A stretch of 64,000 bases of DNA from a virus. Its lineage: Duplodnaviria; Caudoviricetes. Below are positions 29,949 through 49,742 of this stretch, in pieces. Each line of letters opens with the position of its first letter. The stretch's first letter is position 1. Below the pieces are notes generated by a model, which saw nothing but the letters and a program-made list of their open reading frames with translations, did not search any database and was not told the origin of the DNA. Where the stretch lies: positions 10,462 to 74,461 of IMG/VR virus record IMGVR_UViG_3300021400_000049. One strand, given 5' to 3'. A program made the position numbers and the translations under genes.

Positions 29949-30051
29949 ATGTGGTCGTAAGCTCAAATCTGAGCAGTCGAGAATATTAGGCATGGGACCT
30001 ACTTGTTTCAGAAAGTGGCAAAATGAACAAAATACTAAGCCACTGATATAG
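29896..30051 (+). CDS. Small zinc-binding protein (51 aa; not in ORF track)
   Basis: CFRCGRKL...S...GMGPTC, a recurrent phage motif. Confidence 0.55.
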   Translation: MAESSQQSLKNQHPLCFRCGRKLKSEQSRILGMGPTCFRKWQNEQNTKPLI

Positions 30052-30062
30052 AGGTGTGATAT

Positions 30063-30371: not shown

Positions 30372-30391
30372 TCCTCTACATATTAAATGTG

Positions 30392-30427
30392 AAAAATCGA
30401 CTAGAGAAATCTGGTCGATTTTTTTTA
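30392..30427 (+). terminator. Terminator closing the replication module
   Basis: AAAAATCGACTAGA/TCTGGTCGATTTTT plus long T run. Confidence 0.75.
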
Positions 30428-33400: not shown

Positions 33401-33715
33401 AAAGAGGTTAAAGAAAAAGACCAGTGGTGGAATGATCCGTTCTTAGCAAATTGAGAGGAGAAAGAGGATGCGAAAAATTAGTAAGAGTAAGTGGAAGAAG
33501 TGGTTATTGATGCATAGAGATTCAATACTTTAAAGGAGAAAGAAGATGAGTCAGTTAGGATATGAATGTTGTATATGCCATAAGATATTTACAGATTGGG
33601 GTAATGACCCATGGCCAGTAGTGAAAGATGATGATGCAAGGTGTTGTGACGACTGTAATAGTTCAGTGGTACTGCCTGCAAGATTAGCACAATTATTAAA
33701 TAAGGAGGATAATAA

Positions 33716-33976
33716 ATGAAGGATTTTGTAAATGATTTTGAGGTAAGAAAGGGAAAGTTAGATACTCTTGTAGCCAATGCTGGTTACAAGAGTTTTAGAG
33801 AGTTTGCCAAAGATACAGGAGTAACTGCCGCAAATCTATATTCAAATCTTCATGGTACATGGCATATGTCAATGAAAAGAATGTTTAAGGTAGCAAACAC
33901 ACTGAATGTGCCTATACTTCAGGTAATAGAGATTTTCTATCCAGATGAGCTGGCAGAGAATCAGGCATTGTTCTAA
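33716..33976 (+). CDS. Cro/C1-type HTH protein
   Basis: FREFAKDTGVTAANLYS...MFKVANTLNV. Confidence 0.7.
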   Translation: MKDFVNDFEVRKGKLDTLVANAGYKSFREFAKDTGVTAANLYSNLHGTWHMSMKRMFKVANTLNVPILQVIEIFYPDELAENQALF

Positions 33977-35000
33977 AATGTTCCAGTTGTATTCAGCTAC
34001 AGGATATATTACCTTATACTTGTAAACAAAAACAGTTCTATTTGAAAGGAGAACCAATATGTTAGTAACATCAATAGAAATCAGAGAGTGGTTAGATAAA
34101 CAGATTGAGGCCTATCACACATCCTTAGAGAAGTTGATAGTCAATGATGATGGAGATTACCTTAGTAACATCGGTGTTCAGGACAGAGGTATTCATCTCT
34201 GCTCAGATGCAGTAAGGTTTATTGCAGACAGACTTGGTATTGACCTCTGTGTAACATTAAGAAAGAGGGATACGGAGAATCCGTATGAGATTTTCATTCT
34301 GTATAAGGGTGAGAAGTTCTTCGGAATTGAAACTGAGGAAGAGTATCAGGAGAAAGGGGCAGTGGTATAAACCACTGCTCTTTAAAGAGGATAATGCTAT
34401 GATGAAGTTTGTAACATCCTGTATAGATGAAAAGACAGGATATGAGATGGTTTTATCAGAAGTCAGCTATAATGTAGCTATGGATTGGCTACAAAGGCAG
34501 TGTGAGAAGTATTTCAAGGAGATATTTAGAACCGAGAATAATGGTACAGATGATGTGTGGATATATGTAGGTACACCTAAGAAAGATGTAAATCCTATGA
34601 CAGGAGAGGTAGATGTGTGGTATACAAATCAAGTTATATTCCACTATGACGAGAGCAGAGGATATTTGATGCAGGAGTAAGATATGAATTTTGAGGATTT
34701 TTTACAGAACCTATACGGTATTTCAAGTATGTCCAATGATTATGAAGAAAGGGTTGTAGTTAATACCCAAGAAGATGATTGGGTAGTAGACACTGCAATA
34801 GTTACAGATAGGAGCTGGACATATGAGACCGCAGTAATGAGTCCACATTTCAGAAATAATAAATGGATAATAGTCGGTAAAGCAGATACCGAAGAGGATG
34901 CAGTTAAAGTGCATGAACAATGGGTTGATATGATGAGAAATGATCCTAGGGCATTATGGGATATATATGAGGAGAAAATATTTATACACGATTGATTATA

Positions 35001-35034
35001 AGCTACTGGAACTTAATATTCCAGTAGCTTTTAT
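35001..35034 (+). terminator. Intrinsic terminator fused to a promoter cassette
   Basis: AGCTACTGGAA-7-TTCCAGTAGCT followed by TTT. Confidence 0.65.
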
Positions 35035-35998
35035 TTTACCCATATGCTACCTTATATTTGTAAACAAGAACACATAGTTACGAAAGGAGACCACTATGAT
35101 ACAGATTGAGGTTAAGTCAGAGAATGTATTCGGAGATGTGAGATTTTCTTATTGCCAGGTAGAAGATATTCCAACGCACTTCGCAAGATTAAAGTTTGAA
35201 GGCTGGGATAATATACTATCAACCCATCTTGTAGATGAGTTTGGCAGACTACTTAATGAAGATGGACAGTTAGTGTGAAAGGAGACCATTATGAAAGTTT
35301 ACAGAGATAAGGCAACAGGTAAGAAGTTATATCCCGTATGCTCATGGGAAAGAAATCAGCATAAGCTCTATAATGCCATAGATAGGGCACATAATGCAGT
35401 TACCGATTTGTATGAAGACAAGTCGGCTACAATAGAGCAGATTGATAAGGCAGAAGCGTGGGTTCAAGAAGTAGAGAGGTTGACCAGTATATTCGATAGT
35501 CATGTAGCACCTAATGGTGTAGTTTATGCACTATGGGAAGATGGTCAGAAAATAAAGGACATCATATACGGTTATGATTGTAGGCATGACCAGCTTGAGG
35601 CAGAAAGGAGAATGTGATATGTGCCAATATCCATGTAGAAACTGTGTTTATTATAAAGAGTGCGGTGAAAGCACAAGAACAATGCCATGTAATGGCAGAA
35701 TGACGAAGAGTCAGCAGAAAGGGCTAAAAGCAAGCCTGATTGTAATGGATGAGTTTCCTTTAAAGACAAGAGAGGAACTAATAAGAGAAGGAGAAAGAGA
35801 ACAGGCAAGAAGAGCCTTCTATGAGGATTGAAAGGAGACCATTATGTGTAGAAACTGCGAGAACTGCCAATATTGTAAAGAGGACTTTGAATATGATGAT
35901 TTTGGTAATACCTTCGATTACTGCAAGTGTGTACTCACCAATGAGCTGATTGATTGTTCAGAAGCAGAGCATTGTAAGGATTATACAGAGTAGTCCAT

Positions 35999-36036
35999 AA
36001 AGTGTTAGGAATCGACTCCTAACACTTTTATTTTAT
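35999..36036 (+). terminator. Intrinsic terminator
   Basis: AAAGTGTTAGGA-6-TCCTAACACTTT followed by T-rich run. Confidence 0.7.
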
Positions 36037-39000
36037 TTTGATATAAAGTATCAACGAGCAGATAAAAACGTCAGGAAAGAGCAGGAAATGAGTTGAAATA
36101 TTCCTGTTGTCAGGTATATACCTGTATGCTATCCTATATTTGTAAACAAGAACAGAGAGTAAGTTTCATGGTGCCAAGTATATCTTCGCTATGGATGCTG
36201 AAATCGCCATATATGAAAGGAGAGAATATGATACTGAATGATGGATTTTACCCGTCAAAAGAGAGCGGGGTTGTACTAGAAAGATTTGAAGATATGTGGA
36301 CAAAACACTCGATGTCCGATAAGTATGCAAGGGATATTGTGACTACCAGCAATAGTAATATTCAGACCTACTCTGATGCCTTTATGTCAGAGATGGCAGG
36401 GGATGAGATATTCTTTGCAGACTGGATAAGATATAATGAGGGATTACTACCTTACATCAAGAAAGCCGCTGATACAGTGCGTTGGCTACATGAGAATGGA
36501 TATACAGAGTACAAAGTCAATATGCAGTCCGGGATAATAAAATAAAGCGCCTGGATTAGATTTTTATCTTATAGTTGATAAATTGCACACATTGAAAGGA
36601 GAAAGTTAAAAATGGCAACAATGATTAAATATGGAACAAAAGCAGGAGAAGACCTCATACATGATATGAATTACAGACACCCTAAAGGAAATACCCTTTA
36701 TGATGTGTACGGTAAAGTTTCTTCAAAGAAGGCGAAAAGTTGGGAGAAAATCAGAGATGATTGCAACTACCTCAAAGGTAGACGCCTTCATATTATAGGA
36801 GCATCAAGTTATGGGTATTCCTGCATATATGCTTATCCTATATATGACCATAGAGATGAGAGCATTATATCCATGATGATTAGAAAGGAAACAAAGGCGA
36901 ATACCTATGAGATGGAAGTGCCTATAGATGAATATGATAAGAGAATTATACACAAAGGAGAATAAGGAAGATGTTGATATATGATGTAAACCGATATTCA
37001 GAGGATGTATGTAAGTTACCTGATACCATAGTATTACCTGATGATTTAGAAAAGGACGATGTTGATGCCACAGTCAATGCCATAATAGAGTTTGTAGAGA
37101 AGATGTATGGCAGAAAACCGAGCGCATTTGGTTGTAGAGCAAATGGCCAGATTATAAGATACAGAGCATGAATCAAATAAGTTCCAGTTGAAAAGGTAGC
37201 ACCTGAGTGCTACCTTTTTCTTGTAAACAAAAACATTTCTTGAAAGAGAGGACCTATTATGAAGTACATTACCGAAAACATTACAGAGATTGAAAAGCTG
37301 GCCGTATCTATGATGCTCTTTGCTACTTGCGGTGAAGATGAAGATACAATGGCAAATGCCGAAGTATCAAAGACTTCCCCTAACACATTCCACATTGAAT
37401 ATGATGTAGCAAATCCTTTTAATGGAATATCCCTTACAGTAGAGATTCACCGAGAGAGCTATGCTAACGGACAATCGTCAGTATTCCACTACAACGTCAT
37501 ATCTAGTGCCTATGGTGATACCGGAGAGTTCACACTGACAATCGAATAAGTTCCTGTTGATAGGATAGCACCTCTGTGCTATCCTATACTTGTAAATAAG
37601 AACACATATTGAAAGGAGAACCATTATGTTGATGATGTTAGAAGAAGTATTCCCTGGGCAGAATAGAATGAATGAATATCCTATGGGAGAAGAGCAAGAG
37701 TTCCAGAGCATGAAAGAGTTTATATCCTGGAACATAGAGCAGATTGACGAAATCCTGAAAGATGCTCCAGAGGAGCAGATAACAAAAGATAAGCTGACCA
37801 ACGGTGAGTATTCAGTCTATGAAAAAGATGGCGTGGTGTATGTGAGAGTGGAGGTGATAGCATGATTACAAGAGCAAGATTGGAAATGGTGAATGCCAAT
37901 AACAAGAAAGTGTTTGGCAGAAGTATGTGGGGCTATTGTGAATTATCCGATTTAATAGTGAAGTTTTTCAGAATAATGCCTGATTATGTGGACCAAAGTA
38001 AATGTAACCTCAGGGTTTATGATGTGAGTCATTGATATTCCAGTTGATAAGGTACTACATATGTAGTACCTTATTCTTGTAAAGAAGAACACATACATTG
38101 AAAGGAGAACCAATTATGAGAGACATTGATATGAAATGGAGTACCGCAAGAGCTACATACGACCTTATAGTAGATGGAGAGTGGTATGCAGAGGGCAATT
38201 ATGAACAGATGGATGATATGGCAAGAGCCATGAGATTAGCTGATATTGAAGAGGAAGAAGCCAGATGTTCTCAGCCTAGTGATGATTACTACGGTGATGC
38301 AGATGATTGGGATGAGTGCTGACTTATCCCATATAGAAAGGAAACCATTATGGACAAGATAGTTTTGAAACTGAAAGGCAAACTAATAAAGGCCGATGTG
38401 ATAGATTTTTCAGACAGATTAAAGTACGGCGAGATGTTAACCTATGAAGATGCAGATGATGATTGGGAGATATTCTCAGTAAAAGGAACAAAATTCTATG
38501 TAGCCTATCAGCAGTGTTCTGCCTACGATAGGGTGTGAAAGGAGACCGATATGAGTGAAAACATGGTTCTTATAATGATTGATGAGTGCGGAGATGAGCG
38601 GGAATATGACCGTTATACTGTAGGAGATGATTTAGATGAGGATTATCTCGAAATGTGGCAAGAAATGAAAATTTCCAAAGCCAGAGAAGATTATCCAGAA
38701 GCCCGTAGATTTTACTTTGAAGATAGGCGCAATTGGAATAGCATGATAAATGCCATGATTAGAGATGATGAGGGATATGACCCTTGGGAAGATGAAGAGG
38801 TGCCAGTATGAATATCATAAAGCAGAATAAGAAAAGGCAGTTAGTAGAAGAATATGGACCATACATGAATAAGAGATATGCCATATATGACACAATGGGC
38901 ATAATGGAAGTATGGTTCTCAGACAAACAAAAAGCGTTGTCCCATTGGGAGAAATATAAAAACGCGGAGACTTGGGCAGAAAAGAGAGAGCGGTATAAAC

Positions 39001-39108
39001 AAGAATTATTAGCCACAATAGAAAGAGGTGGTCCAGAATTAGATGAACTACCATTTATCTGAGCATATATCAGCTCATTAAAAAGTTGGCGGGCGAAAAG
39101 ACAACCTA

Positions 39109-39480
39109 ATCCATTCATAAATCTATCTATAGAACTAGGCAAATATAAACCATAGATTATAATACAAAAACAAAGCGGAACATAGAGGCCATGTAGAGAT
39201 ACATGACCTTTTAGTGTATACCATATACGACTCTGTAAAATCAGAAAAGAGGGCGGTAAAAGAGTCCTGTTCATATACTCCATTTATTATACCAAATACT
39301 AATACCATATAAACCATATATAGAAACCATATAAATACCATTCTTTAGCCATTTATGCCATTCGTGACATGACTTTATTTAGTCTGTATCTAGGGCCATT
39401 CAGTAGCCATCTAGACTCCTTTCACCTTCTCGCCATTTAGCCCACAATATAGCCAGCCATTCACCCGACATTATCCCCGG
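39109..39480. repeat. CCAT-rich non-coding array
   Basis: About 15 CCAT; CC at 39305, 39314, 39327, 39338, 39349, 39358 (mean spacing 10.6). Confidence 0.65.
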
Positions 39481-40167
39481 CGCCTGGAAACGAAAATTGA
39501 TTCAAATCAAGAAATTTTAGTCCACTAAAGTGCACCTTGCACAAACGGCACCAGGCCACTAGCTTTGCCCCTTGTGGCTAAATTTTGGCGGGCGTCACTA
39601 TTAGGGAAAAGTGCCGAAAAATACGGGGTAGGTATCCGATTTTTAAAAGCCCGCCAAAACCTATTCGTCAAATTGCACAAAAACCACTAGAGGCCTCTGA
39701 CCGAACTCCGATAAGACGTATTCCTGTTGTAAGGTTATATAGGCTAGATTACCATAAAATAAAAAACACACACATAAATATGAAAGAGAGGATACCAATA
39801 TGACAAGAAATGCATTAGTATTAGAGTCTGCCAAAGAATATGCAAGAAAGGGTGCATGGAAGACCGCAGACAGAACATTACATGAAGTTATGGTAGATCC
39901 ATATAACTTTGATGATGAAGAACAGGAGATGGAAGCAAGAGAGTTACAGGTAGAGATAACTTCTCATGTAGCCCTCACTTATGAGCAACTCATGGATTTA
40001 GCCCTTAAGCATTATAACAAGGGCGGGGATAGTACATATGAATGTTGGGAAGAAAGAGATTACCAAGAACATGGACCTATGAGTAAGTATGAAGCACTCC
40101 GTATGTTTGCTATGGATTATGATATAGAAAGGGATAGAATGGGTTGGTAATATACAATCCATTATTT

Positions 40168-40202
40168 AGCTCCGCCCATTATCTGAGCGGAGCTTTTCTT
40201 TT
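40168..40202 (+). terminator. Terminator closing the early region
   Basis: AGCTCCGC/GCGGAGCT followed by TTTCTTTT. Confidence 0.65.
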
Positions 40203-40383
40203 GCCCATTTATTACCTCTAGAGGTATATATTAATATAGAAGAAACGGAACCTAAAATATAAAAATCATTGACACCGCCTTCTTTTTAGATGTATTATAA
40301 CCATGCAGAGAATAGTGAGGCGAGAGTGAAAACCATGACCCCTAAAAGAGATTGAGATTGGGGTATGAAGGAGTAGCTAGGCC

Positions 40384-40463
40384 AAGCGAAAAACGGTTAA
40401 GCGAAAGAAACATGGGCTTACTGAAAAGAAACGATGGCTTACTGAGCAGAAACTGGCAGAAAC
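40384..40463. repeat. 21-bp-period tandem repeats
   Basis: AGAAAC at 40406, 40427, 40448, 40458; GGCTTACTGA at 40415 and 40436; AAGCGAAA at 40384 and 40399. Confidence 0.6.
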
Positions 40464-40538
40464 GAACATTCAAATACAGGTGTCATTACTAGGCAGAGAT
40501 ATGGAATTTACATACCTCTGGTTTTGTGCGTCTGGAAT

Positions 40539-40651
40539 CCATTCTTTTAGGCCCATCAACTCTTTGCCCATATTCCCATAGAGGCCCATTGTCTATTAGG
40601 CCCATTCCTCTATAGGCCCTTTGCTGACGTAGGCCATTGAAGCCCCTGGCC
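40539..40651. repeat. (AGG)CCCAT repeat array
   Basis: CC(C) units at 40552, 40567, 40575, 40585, 40601, 40617, 40634. Confidence 0.6.
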
Positions 40652-40725
40652 ACACACAGGTGGTGTGGTGGTATGTGAGCTTCGCTCACAGAGGATCTGC
40701 TTGCACACAATGTAATAGAATAAAG

Positions 40726-40814
40726 TGTTATTGTTTACAATTAAATAATAAACAATGTTGTTGTTTACATTTTTTAAAATTGTACTTGTAAACAATAACA
40801 ACTTATGATAATAT
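40726..40814 (+). promoter_or_regulatory. Promoter with a 15-bp perfect inverted repeat of the TGTAAACAA motif
   Basis: TGTTATTGTTTACAA (40726-40740) / TTGTAAACAATAACA (40786-40800); TTGTAA-17-TAATAT with TGn. Confidence 0.65.
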
Positions 40815-40937
40815 GATATTGAGCTTCAATAAAGCGTGAGCTTTGAAGCGTGTTCTATCTGTACTTTAACAAACATAGTTAGCTACTAACTATCATATGG
40901 AAACGTAAACACACTATATCGAAACGAGGTAACGAAA

Positions 40938-41555
40938 ATGGAAAAAACAACTATTCTCAGTAACTACAAACTCGCACAAGCTACTTTTGACAACACTAAT
41001 AAGCGTGTTGCGATGACTGACAAGGAGCTTGCAACGCTTAGAGCGATATGCAAAACTAAGACTTTCGGTCTTGTATCGTTAATTGACGATATAGACAACA
41101 TTGCAACGTTCAATGGCGATTATGATTGCAAGCTTGCTCAGAGCGGTAACGCAAAAGAGCACACACTCGTGTCTATATGGAGTCGTAACGCTATTAAACA
41201 CGTTACTAAAAAGAGTGACTATAGAGACTTTGGTGTACGTTTTCACGTTGATAAGCTTGCTCAGCTTTACAAAAATAAAGACTTTGCAAAGCTGATAGAA
41301 AATAGCAACGTGCAAGTGTATTCTCACAGAGACGGTCTTGAAATAAGATTTACGTTTAAGTCACTTGCTGACTGTCTCAAGTTTGTTGCTGATATAGACA
41401 ACGCAACAAAAGAGACTCAAAGCAAGACTCAGACTCAAAAAGAGACAAAGTCTCAGAGCAAAGCAAAAGAGCAAAGCAAGACTCAGAGCAAAGCAAAAGA
41501 GACAAAGTCTCAGAGTAAAAGCAAGACTCTAAAAGAGACTCAGAAAAAAGCGTAA
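40938..41555 (+). CDS. Proline-free hypothetical protein with a basic K/S/Q/T low-complexity tail
   Basis: GAGGT RBS; 205 aa with no Pro; gene contains no CC. Confidence 0.8.
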   Translation: MEKTTILSNYKLAQATFDNTNKRVAMTDKELATLRAICKTKTFGLVSLIDDIDNIATFNGDYDCKLAQSGNAKEHTLVSIWSRNAIKHVTKKSDYRDFGVRFHVDKLAQLYKNKDFAKLIENSNVQVYSHRDGLEIRFTFKSLADCLKFVADIDNATKETQSKTQTQKETKSQSKAKEQSKTQSKAKETKSQSKSKTLKETQKKA

Positions 41556-41627
41556 ATGCTCATGATAGCAACATTTATAGTAGTGATAATATTATTCTTA
41601 CTCTTACTTGCTTTTATCTTTTGCTGA
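41556..41627 (+). CDS. 23-aa hydrophobic single-pass membrane peptide (not in ORF track)
   Basis: TAA-ATG junction with the upstream gene; MLMIATFIVVIILFLLLLAFIFC. Confidence 0.45.
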   Translation: MLMIATFIVVIILFLLLLAFIFC

Positions 41628-41640
41628 TAGCTTAAACATT

Positions 41641-41673
41641 AAAGCACTAGCATTTTTTGCTAGTGCTTTTTTG
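41641..41673. terminator. Intrinsic, probably bidirectional terminator
   Basis: AAAGCACTAGCA-TTTTT-TGCTAGTGCTTT. Confidence 0.8.
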
Positions 41674-41770
41674 TTTGCATTAAAGCGTTACATACCACCC
41701 AGCATCTTTGTTAGCATATGCTAACACGATTGCTGAGTGAGGGGTCTTGCTCCCGTAGGTCAGCATTTTT

Positions 41771-41951
41771 TATAATGACCGTGTCTCACTTATAAAGCCC
41801 GTGGTCTTTCTCCCACAGGAGGCTGCTTTTTATAAAGACCGTGTCACTTAGGTTTTATTTATAATGACCGTGCCACTCAGATTATTCTTTCCAGTAAGAG
41901 GCTTTCTGTCTAAAATACCTGGCCACATATAATCTAAAGACCGTGAAACAC
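41771..41951. repeat. Five TATAAWG(A/C)CCGTG repeats upstream of the terminase operon
   Basis: Copies at 41771, 41791, 41831, 41860 and about 41933; four are followed by GTG-N2-3-CAC. Confidence 0.7.
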
Positions 41952-42027
41952 TCAGCATCGGTCCAGGAACTTGCTACTGATTACATTTTAGTGTTATAGT
42001 ATGTTTACAATAATAAGGAGAATAACT

Positions 42028-42396
42028 ATGTCACCAACACCAATAACGATAGCTAGGACAATAGCAAATGCGCTGAACATGATATATGGCACACATATAG
42101 TAATAAATACGTCACAGTTCTTTGGCGGCGAAGGTAAATTAGTACGAATGTATGTCATTAAAGACGCATTTTATTATGGCGGTAAAAGTGAGTATTCAGA
42201 TAAAGAGCTATTCAAGACCGCCAGCGGAGTGTATGCGTGTTTGTACATGAGGGATATGCTTAATGCCTTCAAGGGAGAAGAGATTAAGGAGGATAATCAA
42301 GGTTATCTTAATGTTTTAGCTAAGAAGAATGGCAGAGCTAATATAGATTACATGGTGAAAACTTATTTAGGAGGAAAGGAAAATGGCAACGATTAA
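42028..42396 (+). CDS. Hypothetical protein upstream of terS
   Basis: Extended -10 TGTTATAGT at 41992-42000; AAGGAG RBS. Confidence 0.6.
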   Translation: MSPTPITIARTIANALNMIYGTHIVINTSQFFGGEGKLVRMYVIKDAFYYGGKSEYSDKELFKTASGVYACLYMRDMLNAFKGEEIKEDNQGYLNVLAKKNGRANIDYMVKTYLGGKENGND

Positions 42397-42883
42397 CTCA
42401 CAGATACCTGAGGATGCTTCGCCCAGAACACTGGATAAATTGCTTACAGGAACTTGCATTACTCACGATGGCTCAAGAATCTCACCTAAACAGGATAAGT
42501 TTATTAACCTGTATATCAAATACTCTGATCCTGCTCAGGCTGCGGAAGAAGCAGGATACATGGTTAGGAATACTAGAAAAGACAAGAGAGCCGCATATGC
42601 CAGAAAAGGCAAAGAGTTGCTTAGAGATGATGTTATAAGGAATGAAATTGCGGCTAGAATGGATGATATTAGAGGAGCTGAGATTGCTGACGCTACGGAA
42701 GTTCTAGTCTATCTTACAAGGGTTATGAGAGGAGAAGTTAAAGACCAGTTTGGAATTGACGCTTCGTTGCAGGAAAGAACTGCGGCGGCTAAAGAGCTTA
42801 ACAGAAGGCTCAGAGAGCTTGAACAGGATAAAGAGATGGGTGGAACTGGTAAAGAAGTACACCTCATATTGAGGAGAGAGTGA
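42383..42883 (+). CDS. terS: Terminase small subunit
   Basis: SPKQDKFINLYI...AAEEAGY; EVLVYLTRVMRGE; RTAAAKEL. Confidence 0.85.
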   Translation: MATINSQIPEDASPRTLDKLLTGTCITHDGSRISPKQDKFINLYIKYSDPAQAAEEAGYMVRNTRKDKRAAYARKGKELLRDDVIRNEIAARMDDIRGAEIADATEVLVYLTRVMRGEVKDQFGIDASLQERTAAAKELNRRLRELEQDKEMGGTGKEVHLILRRE

Positions 42884-42886
42884 TTT

Positions 42887-44194
42887 ATGGGTAGACACAA
42901 AAAGGCTAAGGAGAAAAATGGTGAAATTGTTTTGGATGTTAATGAAGCCATTGCTCCTGTTTATTTTGACGCTATGGATGATATTTTAGACCATAAGCAC
43001 GTTCATTATGTGTTTAAAGGCGGAAGAGGTTCTGCTAAATCTTCTTTTATTTCTGAAATGATACCTCTGGTATTAGTGAATAATCCTAAAGTTCATGCCC
43101 TTGTATTCCGAAAGATAGGTAATACTATAAAGAACTCTGTATGGTCACAGGTAGTATGGGGCATAGATAAATGGGGCCTAAGAGATTACTTTCAGATACC
43201 TAAGACTATTGCAAATCCTATAGTGTATAAACCTACAGGTCAGCAGATATTGTTTATGGGACTTGATGATCCTAACAAAGTTAAGTCTGTAAAGTTGCCT
43301 TTTGGATATATAGGAATAACATGGTTTGAAGAGTTAGACCAATTTGCAGGTGAGAAGGAAATTCGTAAAGTATTACAGTCTACAATGAGAGGTGGATTAT
43401 TATTTTGGGATTTTCGTTCATTTAACCCACCTATATCTAATCTAAACTGGGCTAATCAGTATGCTACAGATGCACTCAGTAGAGAGAACACACTGGTAAC
43501 CTCGACAAATTACATTGATATACCTGAAGAATGGCTTGGACAAGCGTTTATAGATGAAGCTGAGGACTTGAAAGAGACAAATCCACGAGCTTATGAGCAT
43601 GAGTATTTAGGTATACCTGTTGGTACAGGCGGTAATGTCTTTGAAAATGTTGAGCCTATGTACATGAATGATGATTTTATACTTGGCTTTGAAAGATGGT
43701 TAAGAGGAGTCGATTGGGGATGGTTCCCAGACCCATTTGCTTTCACATTATCTCACTTTGAGCCATCTACAAGAACTTTGTATATATTTGGTGAGTTTAG
43801 GTGTAACAAGTTATCTAATAGAGACACTTTCGATAAGGTGTTTAACGAATTACAAATTGCTGGAAGACCACTTGCATCTCCTGATGATATTATAATCTGT
43901 GATAGTGCTGAACCTAAGTCTATTTCTGACTGGAAGAGCTACGGAGCATATGGTGCTAGACCTGCTAAGAAGGAGCCTGACAGTGTTACTTACTCTATGA
44001 AGTGGCTACAGTCACTAAAGCATATTTATATTGATCCTAAGAGATGCCCAGCTACATACAAAGAATTTATCGAATATGAGTATGATAGGGATAAAGAAGA
44101 TGAAGTTATCAGTGGTTATCCTGATAAAGATAACCACTCCATCGACTCTGTGCGTTATGCTACTTCCAAGTATTGGGTAAGAAGAGGACAGTAA
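42887..44194 (+). CDS. terL: Terminase large subunit, PBSX/SPP1-like
   Basis: GGRGSAKS; WFEEL; GVDWG; DSAEP; DNHSIDSVRYA. Confidence 0.92.
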   Translation: MGRHKKAKEKNGEIVLDVNEAIAPVYFDAMDDILDHKHVHYVFKGGRGSAKSSFISEMIPLVLVNNPKVHALVFRKIGNTIKNSVWSQVVWGIDKWGLRDYFQIPKTIANPIVYKPTGQQILFMGLDDPNKVKSVKLPFGYIGITWFEELDQFAGEKEIRKVLQSTMRGGLLFWDFRSFNPPISNLNWANQYATDALSRENTLVTSTNYIDIPEEWLGQAFIDEAEDLKETNPRAYEHEYLGIPVGTGGNVFENVEPMYMNDDFILGFERWLRGVDWGWFPDPFAFTLSHFEPSTRTLYIFGEFRCNKLSNRDTFDKVFNELQIAGRPLASPDDIIICDSAEPKSISDWKSYGAYGARPAKKEPDSVTYSMKWLQSLKHIYIDPKRCPATYKEFIEYEYDRDKEDEVISGYPDKDNHSIDSVRYATSKYWVRRGQ

Positions 44195-44223
44195 TTGAAT
44201 ACACAGCCACTGAATGTTATACT
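44195..44223 (+). promoter_or_regulatory. Promoter for the portal gene
   Basis: TTGAAT-17-TATACT with extended TG. Confidence 0.55.
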
Positions 44224-44259
44224 ACATATAATGAAGGTCATTTGTAGAGGAGAACAGAA

Positions 44260-46056
44260 ATGAGCTTATGGGATAAATTGAAAGGAGCAATAAAGTCTAT
44301 GTTTGGGCGTGATGTTGTTGAAAAAGTGCTATCTGTGAAGTCGGCAGTATCTGACGATATGGTGAATAGTATTCAACTCTGGTCAGCTATGTATGAAGGA
44401 AGAGCCCCGTGGCTAAAAGAGGCTACTCCAGGTAGTCCTGAGAGAGTAGTATCACTTGGTCTACCAGCTCTTATAGCTAGTGAGAAAGCAAGAATGGTTA
44501 CATTAGAGATGGAGAGTGAAATTACTCCACCTATGAAGGATGTAGAGAAAGAGAACCCCGATTATCAGCCACCTGGTATTGATGCTGATGGTAATCCTAC
44601 AATGGGACAGGGTGCTATGATGATTACAGAGCCTGAGCCAGATGGTCCTGTAGAGAGGGCTAACTTTTTGAATGATTCTTATAAGAAGTTGCTCAAACAG
44701 ATAAGAAGACAGTTGGAATATGGTATAGCTAAGGGTGGATTAGTTATTAAGCCATATATTGTGATGTATGATGAAGGTTCACCTACTATTGAAGATAAGA
44801 CGAAAGAAGAAAGTGAGCGACTATCTTCTGAAAAGCCTTTGCCTAAGTATGAGTTTAATTTTGACTTTGTACAGGCTGACAGATTCTATCCTCTTTCTTT
44901 TGATAACAACGGAAAAATAACTGAGGCAGCCTTCTTACAGACAAAGACTGATAACGATAAAGTGTATACAAGAGTAGAGTATCATAAGCTGGAAGGTAGA
45001 ACGATTACAGTCAAAAACTATGCTTTTGTATCTCACAATAATACAGGAATAAACAGAATCTTTGTTCCTACAACTGTTAGTGATTTAGGTAAGCCTTGTG
45101 CATTAGCGGAAGTTTCTGAGTGGGCTAATCTTGAAGAAGAAGTAACTATTAAGAATGTTGATAGGCCTCTGTTTGCATATTTTAAAATGCCTGAAGCTAA
45201 TACTATTGATCCATACTCACCTCTTGGAGTATCAGGATATAGTAGAGTTGTTTCCCTCATTAAAGATGCTGATGAACAGTATTCAAGAATGTTGTGGGAA
45301 TTTGAAGGCGGAGAGCTTGCTATTGATGTAGACCGAGATGCCTTGAAGATTACAGAGTATCAGAATAGACAACATCAGACAGAGATGCCGGCTAAACAGG
45401 AAAGATTGTTCAGAAAGGTAGACCTGAATAGTGAGGAAACATATAATGTATTTGCTCCTGCGTTAAGAGACCAGTCACTTGCTAATGGACTCAATATCAT
45501 TCTCACAAGAATAGAGGATATTGTAGGCTTTAGTAGAGGTACAATATCAGAAGATGTGGGCAACATTGAAAAGACTGCAACCGAGCTAAAAATCAATAAA
45601 CAGAGGAGCTATTCTACTAATGCTGATATACAGGCAGCCCTTGAAGATGCTTTAAGAGATGCAGTTTACGCTATGGATGTGTATTGTACACTCTATCAAG
45701 TAACACCTCCTGGTGAGTATCAGATTTCATTTGAGTGGGATGATTCTATCATTGTTGATACAGAAGCAGAGCTGAATACAAGAATGTCCATGATAAATGC
45801 AGGCATTACATCTAAGCTAGAGACTAGAATGTGGTACTTCGGTGAAACAGAGAATCAGGCTAAAGCCGCATTACAGAAAGTTGATGATGAGAAGAAGCAG
45901 AGTATGGAAACAAATATTCAGGCTCAAGCTCAGTTAGGTGATGTTGCTCAAGGTAAAGATTTCTCAGGAAATAATAACAATCCTGAGCCAGATGCAGAAA
46001 AGAAGGATGTTACTAAACACAACACATCAAATAAGAATGCGGTAGCTAAAAACTAG
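44260..46056 (+). CDS. Portal protein (A118/SPP1-like)
   Basis: Follows terL; LEYGIAKGGLVIKPY; PLGVSGY; KTATE; FEWDDSII. Confidence 0.85.
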   Translation: MSLWDKLKGAIKSMFGRDVVEKVLSVKSAVSDDMVNSIQLWSAMYEGRAPWLKEATPGSPERVVSLGLPALIASEKARMVTLEMESEITPPMKDVEKENPDYQPPGIDADGNPTMGQGAMMITEPEPDGPVERANFLNDSYKKLLKQIRRQLEYGIAKGGLVIKPYIVMYDEGSPTIEDKTKEESERLSSEKPLPKYEFNFDFVQADRFYPLSFDNNGKITEAAFLQTKTDNDKVYTRVEYHKLEGRTITVKNYAFVSHNNTGINRIFVPTTVSDLGKPCALAEVSEWANLEEEVTIKNVDRPLFAYFKMPEANTIDPYSPLGVSGYSRVVSLIKDADEQYSRMLWEFEGGELAIDVDRDALKITEYQNRQHQTEMPAKQERLFRKVDLNSEETYNVFAPALRDQSLANGLNIILTRIEDIVGFSRGTISEDVGNIEKTATELKINKQRSYSTNADIQAALEDALRDAVYAMDVYCTLYQVTPPGEYQISFEWDDSIIVDTEAELNTRMSMINAGITSKLETRMWYFGETENQAKAALQKVDDEKKQSMETNIQAQAQLGDVAQGKDFSGNNNNPEPDAEKKDVTKHNTSNKNAVAKN

Positions 46057-46067
46057 CCCGCTTAATG

Positions 46068-46260
46068 TTTACATATACGAAAATGTGTTCTATAATGAAT
46101 GTGGGTGAGATGTTGACTCGGTCGCATTTTCCCCTCCTAGGGCCCAGAGGAGTTTTCCTCTGGGTTGAGGTAATAACTCGATATGAGATTATTATAAATT
46201 CGTCAATGCGGTGCGACATTTAACCACCCGCACATTCCAGCGTAGAGCGTGACTACGCAC
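46068..46260 (+). ncRNA. Promoter plus multi-stem leader RNA upstream of the scaffold gene (GP20-type motif candidate)
   Basis: TTTACA-17-TATAAT; nested stems GATGTTG/CGACATT, TCGCATT/AATGCGG, CCCAGAGG/CCTCTGGG, GCGTAG/CTACGC. Confidence 0.55.
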
Positions 46261-46301
46261 TTACAAATTAAACGGATATAAGAATGTAGAAGGAGAAAAG
46301 T

Positions 46302-46973
46302 ATGTTACTAAAGGAAATTTTTGACAAGGCAACATCTGAAAACGGCGCTCTTACATTGGAGGAGTTTGAGCGTATTGCTAAGGAAAACAAAGCAAAATTC
46401 ACAGATTTATCTGAAGGTAAATATGTGGATCGACAGAAGTATGAGGATGACCTTGCTAAGAAGGACACAGAGATTACATCTCTGAATGACACAATCACTA
46501 GCAGAAACGCAGACCTCGAGCAGTTAAAAACTCAGCTCAAAGATGCTGGTAGTGATGCCGGAAAGTTAGAGGAGCTTAATAGCAATCTAACCGCTTTACA
46601 GGCTAAGTATGATGCTGACACCGCAGCCCTTCAAACTAAGCTATCAACACAGGCCTATGAGTTTGCAGTTCGTGATTATGCAGGTAAACAGAAATTCTCT
46701 AGTGAGGCCGCTAGAAGGGACTTCACACGCTCAATGATAGACAAAAAGCTCCCTATGGAAGATGGAGCTATCATGGGAGCAGATGATTATATGAAGGCAT
46801 ATGCTAAAGCAAACGCTGATGCATTTATTCAGAAAGAATCAGCTCCTAAAGCACCTGCTCCTGAGTTTGTAGGCTCAGCTACAGGTGGTAAAGATAAAGC
46901 TACAAAAATGTCATTATCAGAGATGATGGCAAAGAAGAATGAAGATCCAAATTTTGTTATAAGTTTTGACTAA
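46302..46973 (+). CDS. Capsid scaffolding protein (Phage GP20-like)
   Basis: Coiled coil; GKYVDRQKY; located between portal and MCP. Confidence 0.8.
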   Translation: MLLKEIFDKATSENGALTLEEFERIAKENKAKFTDLSEGKYVDRQKYEDDLAKKDTEITSLNDTITSRNADLEQLKTQLKDAGSDAGKLEELNSNLTALQAKYDADTAALQTKLSTQAYEFAVRDYAGKQKFSSEAARRDFTRSMIDKKLPMEDGAIMGADDYMKAYAKANADAFIQKESAPKAPAPEFVGSATGGKDKATKMSLSEMMAKKNEDPNFVISFD

Positions 46974-46992
46974 TTGAAAGGAGAAAAATATT

Positions 46993-48060
46993 ATGCCATT
47001 TTTTGATGCGAAATTATTTAATGGTGAAGTATTTCAGAAATATGTAGATAGAATTCCTAATATGCATCTGAATACACTTATTAAGTCTGGAGCAATCGTT
47101 GGCAGACCTGAGCTTGCGGCTTCAATGTCTGACCAGGTTGGTGGTAACTACTTGACCACACCTCTTAAGGGTCTCATCGGTGGAACACCTCTGAACTATG
47201 ATGGTGTTACAAACATCACATCTACAGGAACACAGACTTATTCACATTCCAGAGTTGTTGTAGGACGTGCTAAAGCATGGACAGAAAAGGATTTCTCTTA
47301 CGACATCACTGGCGGAGTAGACTTCATGCAGAATGTCGCTGAACAGGTTGCTGAGTATTGGGATGAGCAGGATCAGGCACTTCTTATCAAGATTCTTGAT
47401 GGTGTGTTCGCTATGTCAGACGATGCAGGAGCTGAGTTTGTAGAGGAGCATACACATGATGTATCTGGTGTTACAAACAGTGAGGGTGTTCTTGGTTACA
47501 TGGATGCAACCACACTTAACACTGGTATGCAGAAGGCTATGGGAGACCATAAGCAGAAGTTCGCTCTTACACTTATGCATTCCGCAGTAGCTACACATCT
47601 TGAGAACTTGAAGGTACTTGTTTACCTCAAGTACAACGATGCTAACGGTATGGAGAGAGACCTTAACATCGGTACTCTTAACGGACGTATGGTTATCGTT
47701 GATGATGATATGCCTGTTATCACAGAAGGATCTGGCACATCAGCAGTTAAGAAGTATGTTACTTATGTATTCGGTCAGGGTGCAGTTGAGTACACTAACT
47801 GCGGTGCTAAGGTTCCTGCTGAGATGGCAAGAGATCCTTATAAGAACGGCGGTGAGGATACACTCATCACAAGAAATAGAAAGTGCTTTGCTCCTTATGG
47901 AATTTCCTTCAAGGGCATCGGCGACATCGCAACACTTTCTCCTACAGACGCAGAGCTTGCAACTGGCGCTAACTGGGAGATTGTAAATACAGGCGGATCA
48001 TCTAAGATGTATCTTCCTCACAAGGCTATTCCTATTGCCAGAGTAATTTCACTCGGCTAA
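46993..48060 (+). CDS. Major capsid protein
   Basis: FNGEVFQKYV; NYDGVTNI; MHSAVATHL; GTLNGRMVIVDD; GGEDTLITR. Confidence 0.88.
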   Translation: MPFFDAKLFNGEVFQKYVDRIPNMHLNTLIKSGAIVGRPELAASMSDQVGGNYLTTPLKGLIGGTPLNYDGVTNITSTGTQTYSHSRVVVGRAKAWTEKDFSYDITGGVDFMQNVAEQVAEYWDEQDQALLIKILDGVFAMSDDAGAEFVEEHTHDVSGVTNSEGVLGYMDATTLNTGMQKAMGDHKQKFALTLMHSAVATHLENLKVLVYLKYNDANGMERDLNIGTLNGRMVIVDDDMPVITEGSGTSAVKKYVTYVFGQGAVEYTNCGAKVPAEMARDPYKNGGEDTLITRNRKCFAPYGISFKGIGDIATLSPTDAELATGANWEIVNTGGSSKMYLPHKAIPIARVISLG

Positions 48061-48109
48061 TAACAGCGGGTTCCTCCTCTGTTTAAATCTAAGAAAGGCG
48101 GTCAAGTCT

Positions 48110-48556
48110 ATGTATCTAACATTTGAAGAATATTCTGAATATGGTGGGACACTAGATGAGACCGCCTTTAATGATTTAGAATTTGATGCAGAAAGCACAA
48201 TAAACTGGTATACATTTAACCGACTCAAAAGACCAGAGTGGGCAGAAGCATTAAATACAGAGGAGTTAAAACGTTGTGTATATCAGCTTATACGTCTGAA
48301 ACAGATGGAAGATGCACTCCTTACATCAAGCGTAGGTGGTGTAGGTGCAGGAGTTGGATGGACAAAAGAAGCTGGAATAACACAGGAGTCTAATGACGGA
48401 GTGTCTACGAGCTACAACACTTTAAGTAGTGGTGAACTCATGGCATTTCTTAACGGCTCTAAAACAAAGAAAGACCTCATTGACCAGTATCTTAATAGCA
48501 TAGTCAATGATTTAGGAAGAAAACTTCTCTATAGGGGAGTTTATCCGGGAGAGTAA
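48110..48556 (+). CDS. Head-tail connector/adaptor
   Basis: YLTFEEYSEYGG; ESNDGVSTSY; ends LLYRGV. Confidence 0.75.
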   Translation: MYLTFEEYSEYGGTLDETAFNDLEFDAESTINWYTFNRLKRPEWAEALNTEELKRCVYQLIRLKQMEDALLTSSVGGVGAGVGWTKEAGITQESNDGVSTSYNTLSSGELMAFLNGSKTKKDLIDQYLNSIVNDLGRKLLYRGVYPGE

Positions 48557-48557
48557 T

Positions 48558-48875
48558 ATGGTAGGATATATCTTTAGGGCTGAAAATACAGTCACTAAGA
48601 AAACTTATATTGGAAAATATCTATCTGTTGCATTTAACAAGAAGTATATAGGAGACAATCCTAACGTCCTTTCTGACGCTGAAAAGTATGGTGCAGACAA
48701 GTTTATAGTCAATATGATAAAGGCTTGTGAAACAGTCAAGGAATGCGATTTTGCATATGATGTTATACTTAAAGAACTTGGTGCAAAGACTGATGAGAAG
48801 TTTTATAACTTTGAGATAAAATCAGAAGAAGCACCAGCAAAGAGAACCAGAAAGAAGAAAGTGGTAGAAGAATGA
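48558..48875 (+). CDS. Degenerate GIY-YIG-derived protein
   Basis: GYIF...KTYIGK...KYG..KF; no obvious catalytic Arg/Glu. Confidence 0.5.
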   Translation: MVGYIFRAENTVTKKTYIGKYLSVAFNKKYIGDNPNVLSDAEKYGADKFIVNMIKACETVKECDFAYDVILKELGAKTDEKFYNFEIKSEEAPAKRTRKKKVVEE

Positions 48876-49318
48876 ACCATTACAGTCAATGGTGGGATGA
48901 TACAATCACACTCTATAACAAATACATAGAGCCTACTACTAAGAAGGTAAAATGGTATCGTCATGTTATTGATGGTTGTTTTTATAAGCATACTGTAGAA
49001 AAACTGACAGTAGGTAAAACCACTATTGATACTAATGTTTCTATATGTCGTATCCGTGTCTCTGATAAGTTTATAGATAAGAAGTCTTGGATGAAGCTGG
49101 ATGATAGTGAAAGGGCTGAAAAATTCACACTATCTGGTGGTGATATTGTTGTTGCTGATGAGACTGATTTTATTATAGACGAGTATGTATCTGGCATGAG
49201 GTCAGCAGACCTCATAAAAGAGAATAAAGAGTGGCCCGGTTGCTTTACAGTAGAGACTGTAAATATAAACGTTGGCGGTGGTAGAGGTGATGAGCATTAT
49301 CATCTAAGAGGTACTTGA
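48872..49318 (+). CDS. Head closure/minor capsid protein
   Basis: TITLYNK; FTLSGGDIVV; C-terminal HYHLRG; synteny. Confidence 0.6.
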   Translation: MNHYSQWWDDTITLYNKYIEPTTKKVKWYRHVIDGCFYKHTVEKLTVGKTTIDTNVSICRIRVSDKFIDKKSWMKLDDSERAEKFTLSGGDIVVADETDFIIDEYVSGMRSADLIKENKEWPGCFTVETVNINVGGGRGDEHYHLRGT

Positions 49319-49319
49319 T

Positions 49320-49742
49320 ATGGCAAAAGACTTTACAATACACACCAGAATACATACAGAAACATTGGATAGAGCCTTAAATAGAATTTTAAAAGATAAG
49401 TATGATAGAGCTATGCTTACTGGAGAAATTCAAGAAGAGGCTGCAAGGAAATATGCGGAGCAGTTAAATCATTATGTACCTAGTTCTATTCCTGGTGGAG
49501 ATGGAAATTTAAGAAGTGCATTGGAGTTTCCAAGATATAAAGGTACAGTTGCAATACATTATGTTGCAGAGAATAAATATGGAGAACACTACGCATCAGC
49601 TCAGTTTAATGCTCCTGATTGGTGGAACAGAACTAATGAGGGAACATTCAGCCATTGGAGTCAGCATATAACTCCAGAAGAAAAAGAAGTAGTTTATAGG
49701 CATGTAGCTAAATTGATAGTGGAGGGTATGAATAATGCCTGA
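49320..49742 (+). CDS. Minor capsid/neck protein
   Basis: YVP...GNLR; YASAQF; synteny. Confidence 0.55.
   Translation: MAKDFTIHTRIHTETLDRALNRILKDKYDRAMLTGEIQEEAARKYAEQLNHYVPSSIPGGDGNLRSALEFPRYKGTVAIHYVAENKYGEHYASAQFNAPDWWNRTNEGTFSHWSQHITPEEKEVVYRHVAKLIVEGMNNA

Follow-up and report, generated by a model that had tools for sequence, protein, structure and literature searches.

A conserved CC-free, GG-poor island preceding the packaging module in an uncultured rumen phage

Why should one predicted transcription unit of a phage genome be devoid of the dinucleotide CC? The question is raised by a locus, termed here the island, within a 64,000-nucleotide stretch of DNA (hereafter, the window) from an uncultured rumen phage, the record of which is a circular-type assembly with a 107-bp end overlap. 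The island lies just upstream of the DNA-packaging genes. An initial annotation had described a long run without CC on the + strand, where about 30 would be expected. Dinucleotide counting confirmed this run at positions 40652-41694 (1,043 nt, + strand; 0 CC, 15 GG), bounded by CC at 40650-40651 and at 41695. The local base content (C, 17.1%; G, 18.7%) predicts 30.4 CC and the window-wide CC rate 21.7. The window contains 1,334 CC in total, and the runner-up CC gap is 323 bp long, at chance level; a gap of 1,045 is expected about 5e-7 times in the window by gap statistics. With local C at 17%, 30 CC expected and such gap statistics, chance or a low C content was rejected as the cause. CC is indeed ordinary outside the run, at 21 per kb across the genome, and sliding-window counts along the 74.5-kb genome gave 12 CC and 28 GG for the next-lowest 1-kb window. 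The CC-free, GG-poor character of the island is genuine and far beyond chance.

GG is reduced about 4-fold, with 36-43 expected and 15 present in the run, 11 of them from 40693 onward. Those that remain are nearly confined to Gly/Trp codons, the ribosome-binding site (RBS) and ATG-G, and the breakdown originally offered for the 11 was verified in each part: six are forced by five Gly codons (41067, 41115, 41145, 41232 and 41334) and one Trp codon (41179), one belongs to the RBS (40928) and one to ATG-G (40940). The single avoidable GG is found in AAG|GAG at 41024, and two more lie in upstream or leader DNA (40693 and 40899). CG and GC steps, as had also been claimed, are not avoided (CG, 31 vs. 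33 expected; GC, 57 vs. 33 expected). General avoidance of restriction palindromes was considered and rejected, since AGCT (11), ACGT (7) and TGCA (8) exceed expectation.

Examination of the region revealed the run to span a promoter, a leader, two ORFs and a terminator, as had been described, together with a stretch of about 135 bp that precedes the promoter. On its left, the island is abutted by a CC/GG-rich tandem repeat array of AGGCCCAT-type units (40530-40651, + strand), in which AGGCCC occurs four times and GGCC six times, both being rare elsewhere, and CC density reaches about 90 per kb vs. 21 per kb in the genome. Inverted repeats TTGTTTACA (40731 and 40761) and TGTAAACAA (40787) lie around the promoter (40731-40795). 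The predicted sigma-A-type promoter (40786-40817, + strand) reads TTGTAA, 17 nt, TGaTAATAT, with a scan returning TAAACA, 17 nt, TATGAT as an alternative call. Neighbouring early promoters carry the invariant CC-containing boxes TTCCWG and TAYCTT, both of which are missing from the island promoter; a TGTAAACA box near the promoter is common to recurrent early-gene promoter cassettes. The leader of about 110 nt (40825-40937, + strand; assigned from sequence, with an inferred transcript start) contains a pair of short hairpins as well as the RBS GAGG (40926-40929, + strand). An 11-nt match between an sRNA and the leader was set aside, a rough estimate indicating that chance would yield matches of this length when a leader of 110 nt is compared with a genome of 74 kb, and an Rfam search of positions 39000-43000 found nothing but a sub-threshold match to GcvB, which lies outside the island. 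An ORF of 205 aa (40938-41555, + strand) is followed by a translationally coupled ORF of 23 aa (MLMIATFIVVIILFLLLLAFIFC; 41556-41627, + strand) encoding a single hydrophobic helix, and then by a predicted intrinsic terminator with a 12-bp stem and a T tract (41641-41680, + strand; also delimited as 41641-41669). Four direct repeats, (T)ATAA(T/A)GACCGTG (41770-41950, + strand), lie in the gap that separates the island from the packaging genes; late promoters and pac boxes are candidate functions, and the repeats persist even in L007, the most diverged relative, as TCTATGACCGTG. Further downstream come a 131-aa ORF, terS and terL (42001-44194, + strand; terS, 42383-42883; terL, 42887-44194) and the portal gene (from 44260). 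The phage GenBank collection held no near match.

As claimed, the 205-aa protein contains no proline (with 5 Gly and 1 Trp), and its basic tail (residues 156-205) is variable and rich in K/S/T/Q/E, residues 1-155 corresponding to a conserved globular domain. The protein belongs to no Pfam or PHROG family, a Pfam scan yielding a sub-threshold GNAT match only, and among 1.8 billion proteins it was matched by four 50%-identity cluster representatives, these being its own family. When an AlphaFold2 model (pLDDT 63) was compared with solved structures using Foldseek, no match at E<=0.001 was obtained. Against BFVD, the same pLDDT-63 model gave MotA of phage Bp7 as the top match (E 0.014, probability 0.89), with two further MotA rows, and VIA-align of this model returned 6k4y_M (Z 4.8) and 5jlt_A (Z 4.5), scores in the noise range. 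In the superposition of the pLDDT-63 model on MotA, the middle-transcription activator of T4 and also an early gene product, residues 22-156 fall on the C-terminal double-wing DNA-binding domain (103 of 114 residues; rmsd 3.7 Å; Z 4.5). By contrast, the 205-aa protein shows no sequence similarity to MotA, is not a member of the Pfam MotA families by sequence and lacks the MotA N-terminal domain, while MotA has nothing equivalent to the K/S/T/Q tail or to the coupled membrane peptide. The model hints weakly at a MotA-like, DNA-binding-like fold. Each of the 12 orthologous units contains a coupled ORF that is hydrophobic and 20-30 aa long.

These orthologous units, the CC content of which had been put forward as decisive, hold 0-1 CC per kb at 41-100% protein identity. 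The refuting condition set by the initial annotation was thus decided in favour of the finding, as CC is kept out at protein identities of 41-90% and with diverged synonymous sites. In the 11 closest units (10.3 kb), 5 CC are found vs. 213 expected (0.02 of expectation) and 116 GG vs. 419 expected (0.28 of expectation), such that the depletion holds on both strands; the twelfth and more diverged unit, L015, has 1 CC in 924 bp. Across the 12 units, NCC accounts for 2 of 496 codons vs. 8.9% in the phage's other genes, and C|C for 2 of 337 codon junctions vs. 9.6%. At four-fold sites, the orthologous units share only 50-77% identity with the window. Promoter and leader types are non-homologous among the units, yet all are CC-free, and the 3' non-coding parts are free of both CC and GG. 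Amino-acid composition as the sole cause was rejected, since re-encoding the protein with phage codon usage gives 5.5-6.7 CC and 15-19 GG vs. an observed 0-1 CC and 6-9 GG per ortholog (the exception being L011, with 16 GG); avoidable GG number 0-3 per CDS vs. about 10 expected. The distant homologue L016 (37-40% identical to the window protein) shows normal densities of CC (12 per kb) and GG (45 per kb), along with 1 Pro and 14 Gly; no longer contigs were found for P0020, a homologue of normal composition. The normal CC/GG content of a distant homologue, taken together with the CC-free state of diverged orthologs, therefore identifies the ban as lineage-specific selection on nucleotides and not as a property of the protein. 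Given that diverged relatives keep the ban by selection, some DNA reader of the CC/GG step must exist in the infected cell.

Mutation offers a different account, in which a CC-specific cytosine deaminase or a similar mutator would have cleared CC and GG with no selection for their absence. APOBEC3G-type enzymes display CC specificity, and there is some enrichment of CT and CA steps. However, one unit per genome is affected, with sharp borders; the C content of the island is above that of the genome; CG and GC are not depleted; and the ban outlasts saturating synonymous divergence. Moreover, the protein is well conserved, with 59 invariant positions across 18 homologues. The deaminase purge suggested by the initial annotation is unlikely as a pure mutation process, given that one unit only is involved, on both strands, and that this unit encodes a well-conserved protein; a mutational purge of any kind is accorded next to no probability.

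CC/GG-free islands were also found in relatives with terL 54-71% identical, at the same position but with unrelated genes. These island lineages beyond the 205-aa family are L026, L034, L036 and L132, and the island proteins of the first three show no homology to that family by hhalign or BLASTP. The L026 island has 0 CC and 2 GG in 1,042 bp and encodes a protein without P, G or W, while that of L036 has 0 CC in 1,811 bp vs. 63 expected. Like the island of the window, those of L026 and L034 are preceded by CC/GG-rich repeats. A GG-less RBS, GAAAGTGAG, occurs in four unrelated-gene islands. There is one island per genome, always no more than a few kb upstream of terL. Close relatives without an island exist, and in such island-less relatives no alternative banned dinucleotide was detected except for a CG-free stretch in L127. 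Comparison across these genomes establishes that the ban exists and is conserved, that it acts at synonymous and at non-coding positions, that it is lineage-specific and that it recurs, at one genomic position, with genes that are unrelated.

The L036 island bears on whether the ban acts on RNA. A CC-less mRNA might escape a CC-cutting endoribonuclease (cf. ACA-less mRNAs and MazF) or keep its RBS unpaired, and such a cause would fit both the coincidence of the CC-free run with a transcription unit, from promoter to terminator, and the CC-less sense strand of all + strand islands. The best ORF of L036, however, lies on the - strand (3 Pro, 0 Gly/Trp; RBS GAAAGTGAG; its only homologue found was itself, on one ENA contig), such that its mRNA is GG-free yet contains CC, and the CC-free strand is still +. 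That the same DNA strand is cleared despite the reversed gene argues against an RNA-level cause, an argument from one reversed gene only. In addition, the run of the window extends upstream of the promoter, and GG is avoided at synonymous sites, which a CC-reading RNase leaves unexplained. An RNA-level cause is accordingly considered highly improbable.

In all five lineages, the strictly cleared strand is + (terL sense), irrespective of gene orientation, which speaks for some other strand-polar DNA process, for example one in which sites for initiation by the phage primase are avoided, or those of a nickase with strand specificity, or those of a factor that acts on the 3'-ended single strand once the entering DNA end has been resected. 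The island, moreover, lies near the likely pac site, and the phage encodes a DnaG-like primase, DnaB and several HNH/GIY-YIG nucleases. Against this stand the strong depletion of GG as well, the lack of an evident benefit of a primer-free or nick-free kilobase, and the fact that no primase or nickase of this group is known to have CC specificity. A process of this kind is judged improbable.

The reading regarded as most likely, if still at rather less than an even chance, is that base hypermodification by the phage itself, specific to a sequence context and served by TET-associated glycosyltransferases (TAGT), acts as the reader. The glycosyltransferase genes of the phage comprise three TAGT (PF20691; window positions 11519-12376, 12376-13212 and 13743-14606) and two GT2 genes, and a ParB-like protein is also encoded. 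A search of the whole genome in six frames for PF00145 (C5-methyltransferase) and PF12851 (TET/JBP) gave no match at E<=1, divergent enzymes being possible, and a genome search revealed no ThyA-like hydroxymethylase; two unannotated neighbours of the glycosyltransferase genes have no HxD motif and no match among solved structures. Were thymine the target of the pathway, as it is for ParB-dependent T-dioxygenases, the relevant context would not be CC. As to the co-occurrence of island and glycosyltransferase genes, which the initial annotation had proposed to check, TAGT was found in 3 of 3 complete island-bearing genomes, but the association is not statistically significant. Full scans of four complete relatives without TAGT revealed no island, four TAGT-bearing relatives lack one, and no TAGT was seen in G001, an island-bearing contig that is 66% complete. 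The proposal of a mark-free patch is possible in view of the glycosyltransferases present, but its other part, that the mark blocks host RNAP, is unsupported because the template strand keeps 8-11 CC and because of the reversed orientation in L036.

We read the locus as an accessory, self-contained early unit consisting of a sigma-A-type promoter, a DNA-binding-like protein, a membrane peptide and a terminator, the position of which, directly upstream of the packaging module, would probably place it in an early-entering part of the genome. Purifying selection on DNA, rather than on RNA or protein, keeps CC off the + strand and nearly off the - strand. A DNA-acting factor needing CC thus finds no site in this one unit; if hypermodification is the reader, the cassette would stay an unmodified patch within an otherwise modified genome. 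Full clearing of the C-poor + strand and partial clearing of the other would fit a reader that is harmful only with sites on both strands. We infer the purpose of the ban to be 'stealth', or the keeping of an untouched patch: the encoded function may have to avoid being a target of modification-dependent host nucleases or, alternatively, the cassette may have to be handled as plain DNA right after entry.

The same clearing could, in line with a further suggestion of the initial annotation, serve against a host defence with CC as its minimal recognition, with the cassette providing a site-free counter-defence or takeover function. Such a defence might be type I-B CRISPR (5'-CCN PAM), Cas9 with NGG or a frequent-cutting nickase; the cassette would never be targeted and never serve as a spacer donor while being expressed from early-entering DNA, as with the first-step-transfer region of T5. 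A CC or NGG PAM demands exactly the clearing of CC/GG on both strands, and even the GG of the RBS has been given up in some lineages. The island is accessory, adjoins the packaging genes and is missing in close relatives, as for an anti-defence moron. The relatives of the phage lysin are all from Lachnospiraceae (class Clostridia), the host probably being a rumen member of this family. Type I-B CRISPR of C. difficile takes 96% of its new spacers next to CCN PAMs, with spacer yield following CC density (PMC8406132), and CC PAMs (I-F) are depleted across P. aeruginosa phage genomes (PMC12174588). Nonetheless, a single cleared 1-kb unit leaves the rest of the genome exposed unless entry is stepwise or infection cooperative. 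TCN, a weaker I-B PAM, is not depleted in the 11 orthologous units, and Cas9 does not predict the strand asymmetry. No CRISPR spacers matching window positions 30001-50000 were found in 401 Lachnospiraceae genomes; a short match in G319 inside the island was rejected as a spacer, being the start of an ordinary host gene. The layout also differs from that of an anti-CRISPR (acr-aca) operon, in which one or more small acr genes precede an HTH aca repressor gene: neither ORF of the island has an HTH domain, and the second encodes the 23-aa hydrophobic peptide. Host defence is thus held to be an unlikely reader, if one to be taken seriously.

In agreement with the initial annotation, which knew of no such locus, literature searches found no paper on such cassettes. 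Known motif avoidance by phages is a mild genome-wide signal or concerns sites of 4-6 bp, whereas here a two-letter step is near-completely removed from one unit, with such strength that proline is excluded, Gly/Trp are minimised and, in some lineages, the RBS is rewritten. The rule has persisted over long periods of evolution and reappears, at the same site in the genome, with unrelated genes. It is considered to have close to an even chance that many unrelated phages keep one early, packaging-proximal cassette without a given dinucleotide, this being the minimal step of an undescribed class of DNA readers (a hypermodification enzyme or a host nuclease), and that the cassette is a 'blind spot' that reveals the specificity of the reader and carries new first-acting takeover or anti-defence proteins. 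Should the reader be the phage's modification system, islands would reveal the context of unknown DNA modifications from genomes alone; should it be host defence, they would flag those genes for which a phage needs the earliest expression and the best protection, a rich source of counter-defence proteins. Either way, recoding of the locus offers a direct experimental handle.

Several known systems resemble the island in part. The pre-early (first-step-transfer) region of T5, reportedly without EcoRI sites and studied with ris mutants, as Davison and Brunel are said to have described in 1979, is a short early-gene block without nuclease target sites that are found elsewhere in the genome, is bordered by repeats and provides functions needed before the remaining genome is safe; the island, with 0 CC vs. 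30 expected locally and 21 per kb elsewhere, would be similar if a nuclease reads CC. In T5, however, the missing site is 6 bp long and the region is a terminal repeat, at the physical end of virion DNA, the early entry of which (ahead of an injection stop) has been demonstrated, whereas the ban described here concerns a dinucleotide and reshapes proteins (no Pro, few Gly); the position of the island beside terS is no more than suggestive of T5-type first entry, and searches of Pfam, PHROG and the 1.8 billion proteins linked the 205-aa protein to none of A1, A2 and dmp. In phage T7, the sites of the type III enzyme EcoP15I are said, after Meisel et al. in 1992, to lie all in one orientation. 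As in the island, an asymmetric motif is wholly removed from one strand, which is enough in T7, as the enzyme needs inversely oriented sites; in T7 a 6-bp motif is affected genome-wide, whereas here the ban is local and the second strand is 4- to 25-fold depleted as well.

Phage hypermodification systems with contexts of 2-3 nt include post-replicative modification at GpC[C/T] by a C5-methyltransferase, TET and glycosyltransferase (PMC8256090) and a T-dioxygenase acting with ParB at NTC/NTG (PMC13229309). TAGT and ParB-like parts are present here, but no methylase or dioxygenase was found in the genome, and for those systems neither a CC context nor a modification-free zone of the phage genome has been reported. 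In CRISPR PAM depletion (PMC12174588, PMC8406132), the same dinucleotide is avoided by selection on both strands; the known cases are mild and genome-wide, whereas the island presents a near-complete, local ban in one transcription unit.

A recount of CC across the window reproduced exactly the CC-free run that the initial annotation had placed at 40652-41694 of the + strand. From the local C content (17.1%), 30.4 CC would be expected in the run; none is found. The window holds 1,334 CC in all, and the second-longest gap between them is 323 bp, as chance predicts; the expected count of a 1,045-bp gap is ~5e-7. GG occurs 15 times in the run, with 11 occurrences from 40693 onward vs 36-43 expected. 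The contention that GG survives nearly only where forced was borne out: of the 11, six fall in codons for Gly (five) or Trp (one), one in the RBS and one at ATG-G, and the rest are one AAG-GAG codon junction and two upstream positions. CG and GC steps were indeed common, neither being avoided, with GC enriched 1.7-fold and CG at parity with expectation, as compared to 0.51 of expectation across the rest of the window. A dinucleotide scan revealed no second region resembling the run elsewhere in the genome. The virus record, whose final 64 kb make up the window, spans 74,461 bp with a 107-bp overlap of its ends, and essentially all of its genes are carried by the + strand.

The run comprises, all on the + strand, a sigma-A-type promoter (40786-40817; TTGTAA, 17 nt, TGaTAATAT) surrounded by the inverted repeats TTGTTTACA/TGTAAACAA, a leader of ~110 nt with a GAGG RBS, an ORF of 205 codons (40938-41555), a second ORF of 23 codons (41556-41627) that abuts the first via TAAATG and encodes one hydrophobic helix, and a terminator with a 12-bp stem (41641-41669). 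To the left lies a repeat array of AGGCCCAT-type units, rich in CC/GG, and to the right four TATAA(T/A)GACCGTG repeats, followed by a 131-aa ORF, terS, terL and an SPP1-type portal gene. The sequence ATAA(T/A)GACCGTG is found in four copies at 41770-41950, in the stretch separating the island from the packaging genes, with a fifth copy at 28984; all seven genome copies of GACCGTG are on the + strand. A TGTAAACA box is common to the island promoter and to ~12 recurrent early-gene promoter cassettes at 30428-39721, whose CC-containing TTCCWG and TAYCTT/TATCCT boxes the island promoter lacks. Each cassette precedes a small early ORF and contains TTCCWG, a -35-like TTGA/TTGT, a palindromic 17-nt spacer, the CC-containing -10-like TAYCTT/TATCCT and then TTGTAAACAaaaaca; TGTAAACA is the sole cassette box found in the island promoter.

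Homologues of the 205-aa protein numbered 18 among 5.8 billion proteins, every one metagenomic, and just two more, of greater distance, emerged when 1.8 billion cluster representatives were searched with a profile. Twelve orthologous loci (protein identity 41-100%) were fetched and, in line with the expectation that orthologs stay CC-free despite divergence, all 12 presented 0-1 CC per ~1 kb, with 26-42 CC per kb in their flanks; one locus, 51% identical (L007), is CC-free over 1,274 bases. Taken together, the 11 closest units contain 5 CC vs 213 expected and 116 GG vs 419 expected. NCC codons (2/496) and junctions at which C meets C between codons (2/337) are similarly scarce in the 12 units, as compared to 8.9% and 9.6%, respectively, in other genes of the phage. 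At four-fold sites, the units agree with the window in only 50-77% of cases, so there was ample time for CC to arise. Re-encoding with the codon usage of the phage yielded 15-19 GG per protein vs 6-9 observed (16 in L011), and avoidable GG numbered 0-3 in 10 of the 11 units tested. Promoter and leader regions belong to at least three unrelated sequence types, all without CC, and the 3' non-coding parts contain neither CC nor GG. One longer island (L010:850-2346) includes an extra 83-aa ORF, and the 583 bp 3' of its main gene (L010:1763-2346) are likewise devoid of both. Proline is absent from the proteins of all 12 fetched loci and present once in one further homologue in the alignment, while most orthologs conserve five Gly and one Trp. 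The CC/GG-poor unit is real and conserved, and avoidance of CC and, mostly, GG is maintained by selection; that it reflects mutational purging alone is highly improbable.

Judging from P0020, the most distant homologue (37-40% identical) and the only one with normal CC/GG content, this ban is not intrinsic to the 205-aa protein. Its locus, L016, a contig of just 1 kb (ENA ERZ27297876) around which no longer contigs were found, has 12 CC and 45 GG per kb; the protein contains one Pro and 14 Gly, and its tail is acidic where that of the window's protein is basic.

Scanning of 80 viral (terL-related) contigs, then of 23 related to one of these, revealed further islands 0.3-4.5 kb upstream of terL. 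Relative to counts expected from local base composition, these were L026 (1,042 bp; CC 0 vs 18.5, GG 2 vs 21), L034 (926 bp; CC 1 vs 22, GG 9 vs 29), L036 (1,811 bp; CC 0 vs 63.5, GG 22 vs 56.5), L132 (837 bp; CC 1 vs 19, GG 11 vs 20) and the non-coding, AT-rich L139 (CC 2 vs 14, GG 2 vs 11). No similarity could be detected between their proteins and the 205-aa family, nor among these proteins themselves; that of L026 (153 aa) has no Pro, Gly or Trp. A GG-less RBS, GAAAGTGAG, is common to four islands, and those of L026 and L034 are preceded by CC/GG-rich repeats, as is that of the window. The ban belongs to the genomic position and not to one gene. Fully scanned genomes contain at most one island and, since close relatives of bearers often have none, the island is an accessory module. 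L139:1632-2438, which is non-coding, AT-rich, CG-rich and CC/GG-poor, carries iteron-like repeats (TTGATATATTATTATTGAC, ~4 copies) and may be a replication origin. At the corresponding position upstream of terS/terL in a related phage, L127:4136-5056 (921 bp) has normal CC/GG but 0 CG vs 16.6 expected locally. Both genes in it lie on the minus strand, and the product of one ends in a KKGKKA tail; either another dinucleotide is avoided here or, the DNA being AT-rich, the gap may have arisen by chance.

The sole convincing ORF of L036 (132 codons), called as a gene in an ENA assembly and preceded by a correctly spaced GAAAGTGAG RBS, lies on the minus strand; its protein has three Pro and neither Gly nor Trp. 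Its mRNA would hence be GG-free rather than CC-free, yet the + DNA strand again has zero CC. Together with synonymous GG avoidance among the window's orthologs and the fact that the run begins before the promoter, this reversal favors a factor that reads DNA, and the same three points render a cause at the RNA level very unlikely. The strand argument, which comes from one reversed gene, is moderate evidence. Some other strand-polar process acting on DNA is somewhat less improbable, if still doubtful.

Among its replication genes, the phage encodes three TET-associated glycosyltransferases (TAGTs), two GT2 proteins and a ParB-like protein, the TAGT genes lying with the ParB-like gene among them at 11519-14606 and the GT2 genes with an unannotated 220-aa neighbor at 3661-5578. 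A family A DNA polymerase is encoded in two ORFs (7532-9112 and 9944-10819), split by a GIY-YIG/NUMOD3 homing endonuclease gene (9146-9862); a second GIY-YIG gene is at 10860-11519. A six-frame search of the genome detected no cytosine-5 methylase, TET/JBP dioxygenase or ThyA-like hydroxymethylase, and the HxD motif is absent from two unannotated neighbors of the glycosyltransferase genes. The proposed co-occurrence of islands with such genes was compatible with islands being restricted to modifying phages but not significant: TAGTs number three, three and one in complete island-bearing genomes (G000, G003, G011), with none seen in a fourth, 66% complete (G001), and two, one, two and two (G004, G009, G013, G014) or zero (G005, G006, G007, G012) in those lacking islands. 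The likeliest reader, though at less than even odds, is the phage's own context-specific hypermodification, including a variant in which a host nuclease attacks the modified DNA. In published phage modification systems the contexts are short: the C5-MT/TET route recognizes GpC[C/T] (PMC8256090), and T-dioxygenases, of which some are ParB-dependent, recognize NTC or NTG (PMC13229309). CC is the context of none of them.

A less probable reader is a host CRISPR system with a CC PAM or a CC-reading nuclease. The 46 genomic relatives of the endolysin (glucosaminidase plus CW_7) come almost exclusively from Lachnospiraceae, of the same class as Clostridioides difficile, whose type I-B system uses a CCN PAM, with spacer yield tracking CC density (PMC8406132); in P. 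aeruginosa phages, genome-wide CC-PAM depletion has been described (PMC12174588). No spacers against 30001-50000 of the window were found in 401 Lachnospiraceae genomes. One short match to the island in these genomes was an ordinary host gene start. Causes not considered account for the remaining probability.

No Pfam or PHROG family was found for the products of the unit. An AlphaFold2 model of the 205-aa protein was of middling confidence (pLDDT 63) and Foldseek returned no match among solved structures. In a Foldseek search of viral models, MotA of phage Bp7 ranked first (E 0.014, probability 0.89) and two further rows were also MotA. Ranks 2-3 in VIA-align went to the C-terminal DNA-binding domain of MotA (Z 4.8 and 4.5; 103/114 residues). 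These scores fall inside the range that the tool itself gives as noise. As two methods agree, a MotA-like DNA-binding domain can be taken as a lead only. The K/S/T/Q/E tail is variable in both length and sequence, and the coupled hydrophobic peptide keeps its position and character in 12/12 orthologs.

The island would be an accessory early cassette adjoining the packaging genes and kept blind to a CC/GG reader. Nothing explaining such a unit was found in the literature, and the most fitting description of the locus is motif avoidance in a new form that is both extreme and local. The + strand is C-poor (14% C, 22% G) and therefore the cheaper to clear completely; full clearing of one strand with partial clearing of the other would be expected were harm to need sites on both. 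Phage T7 reportedly does likewise with type III restriction sites, resembling the island in the complete clearing of one strand.
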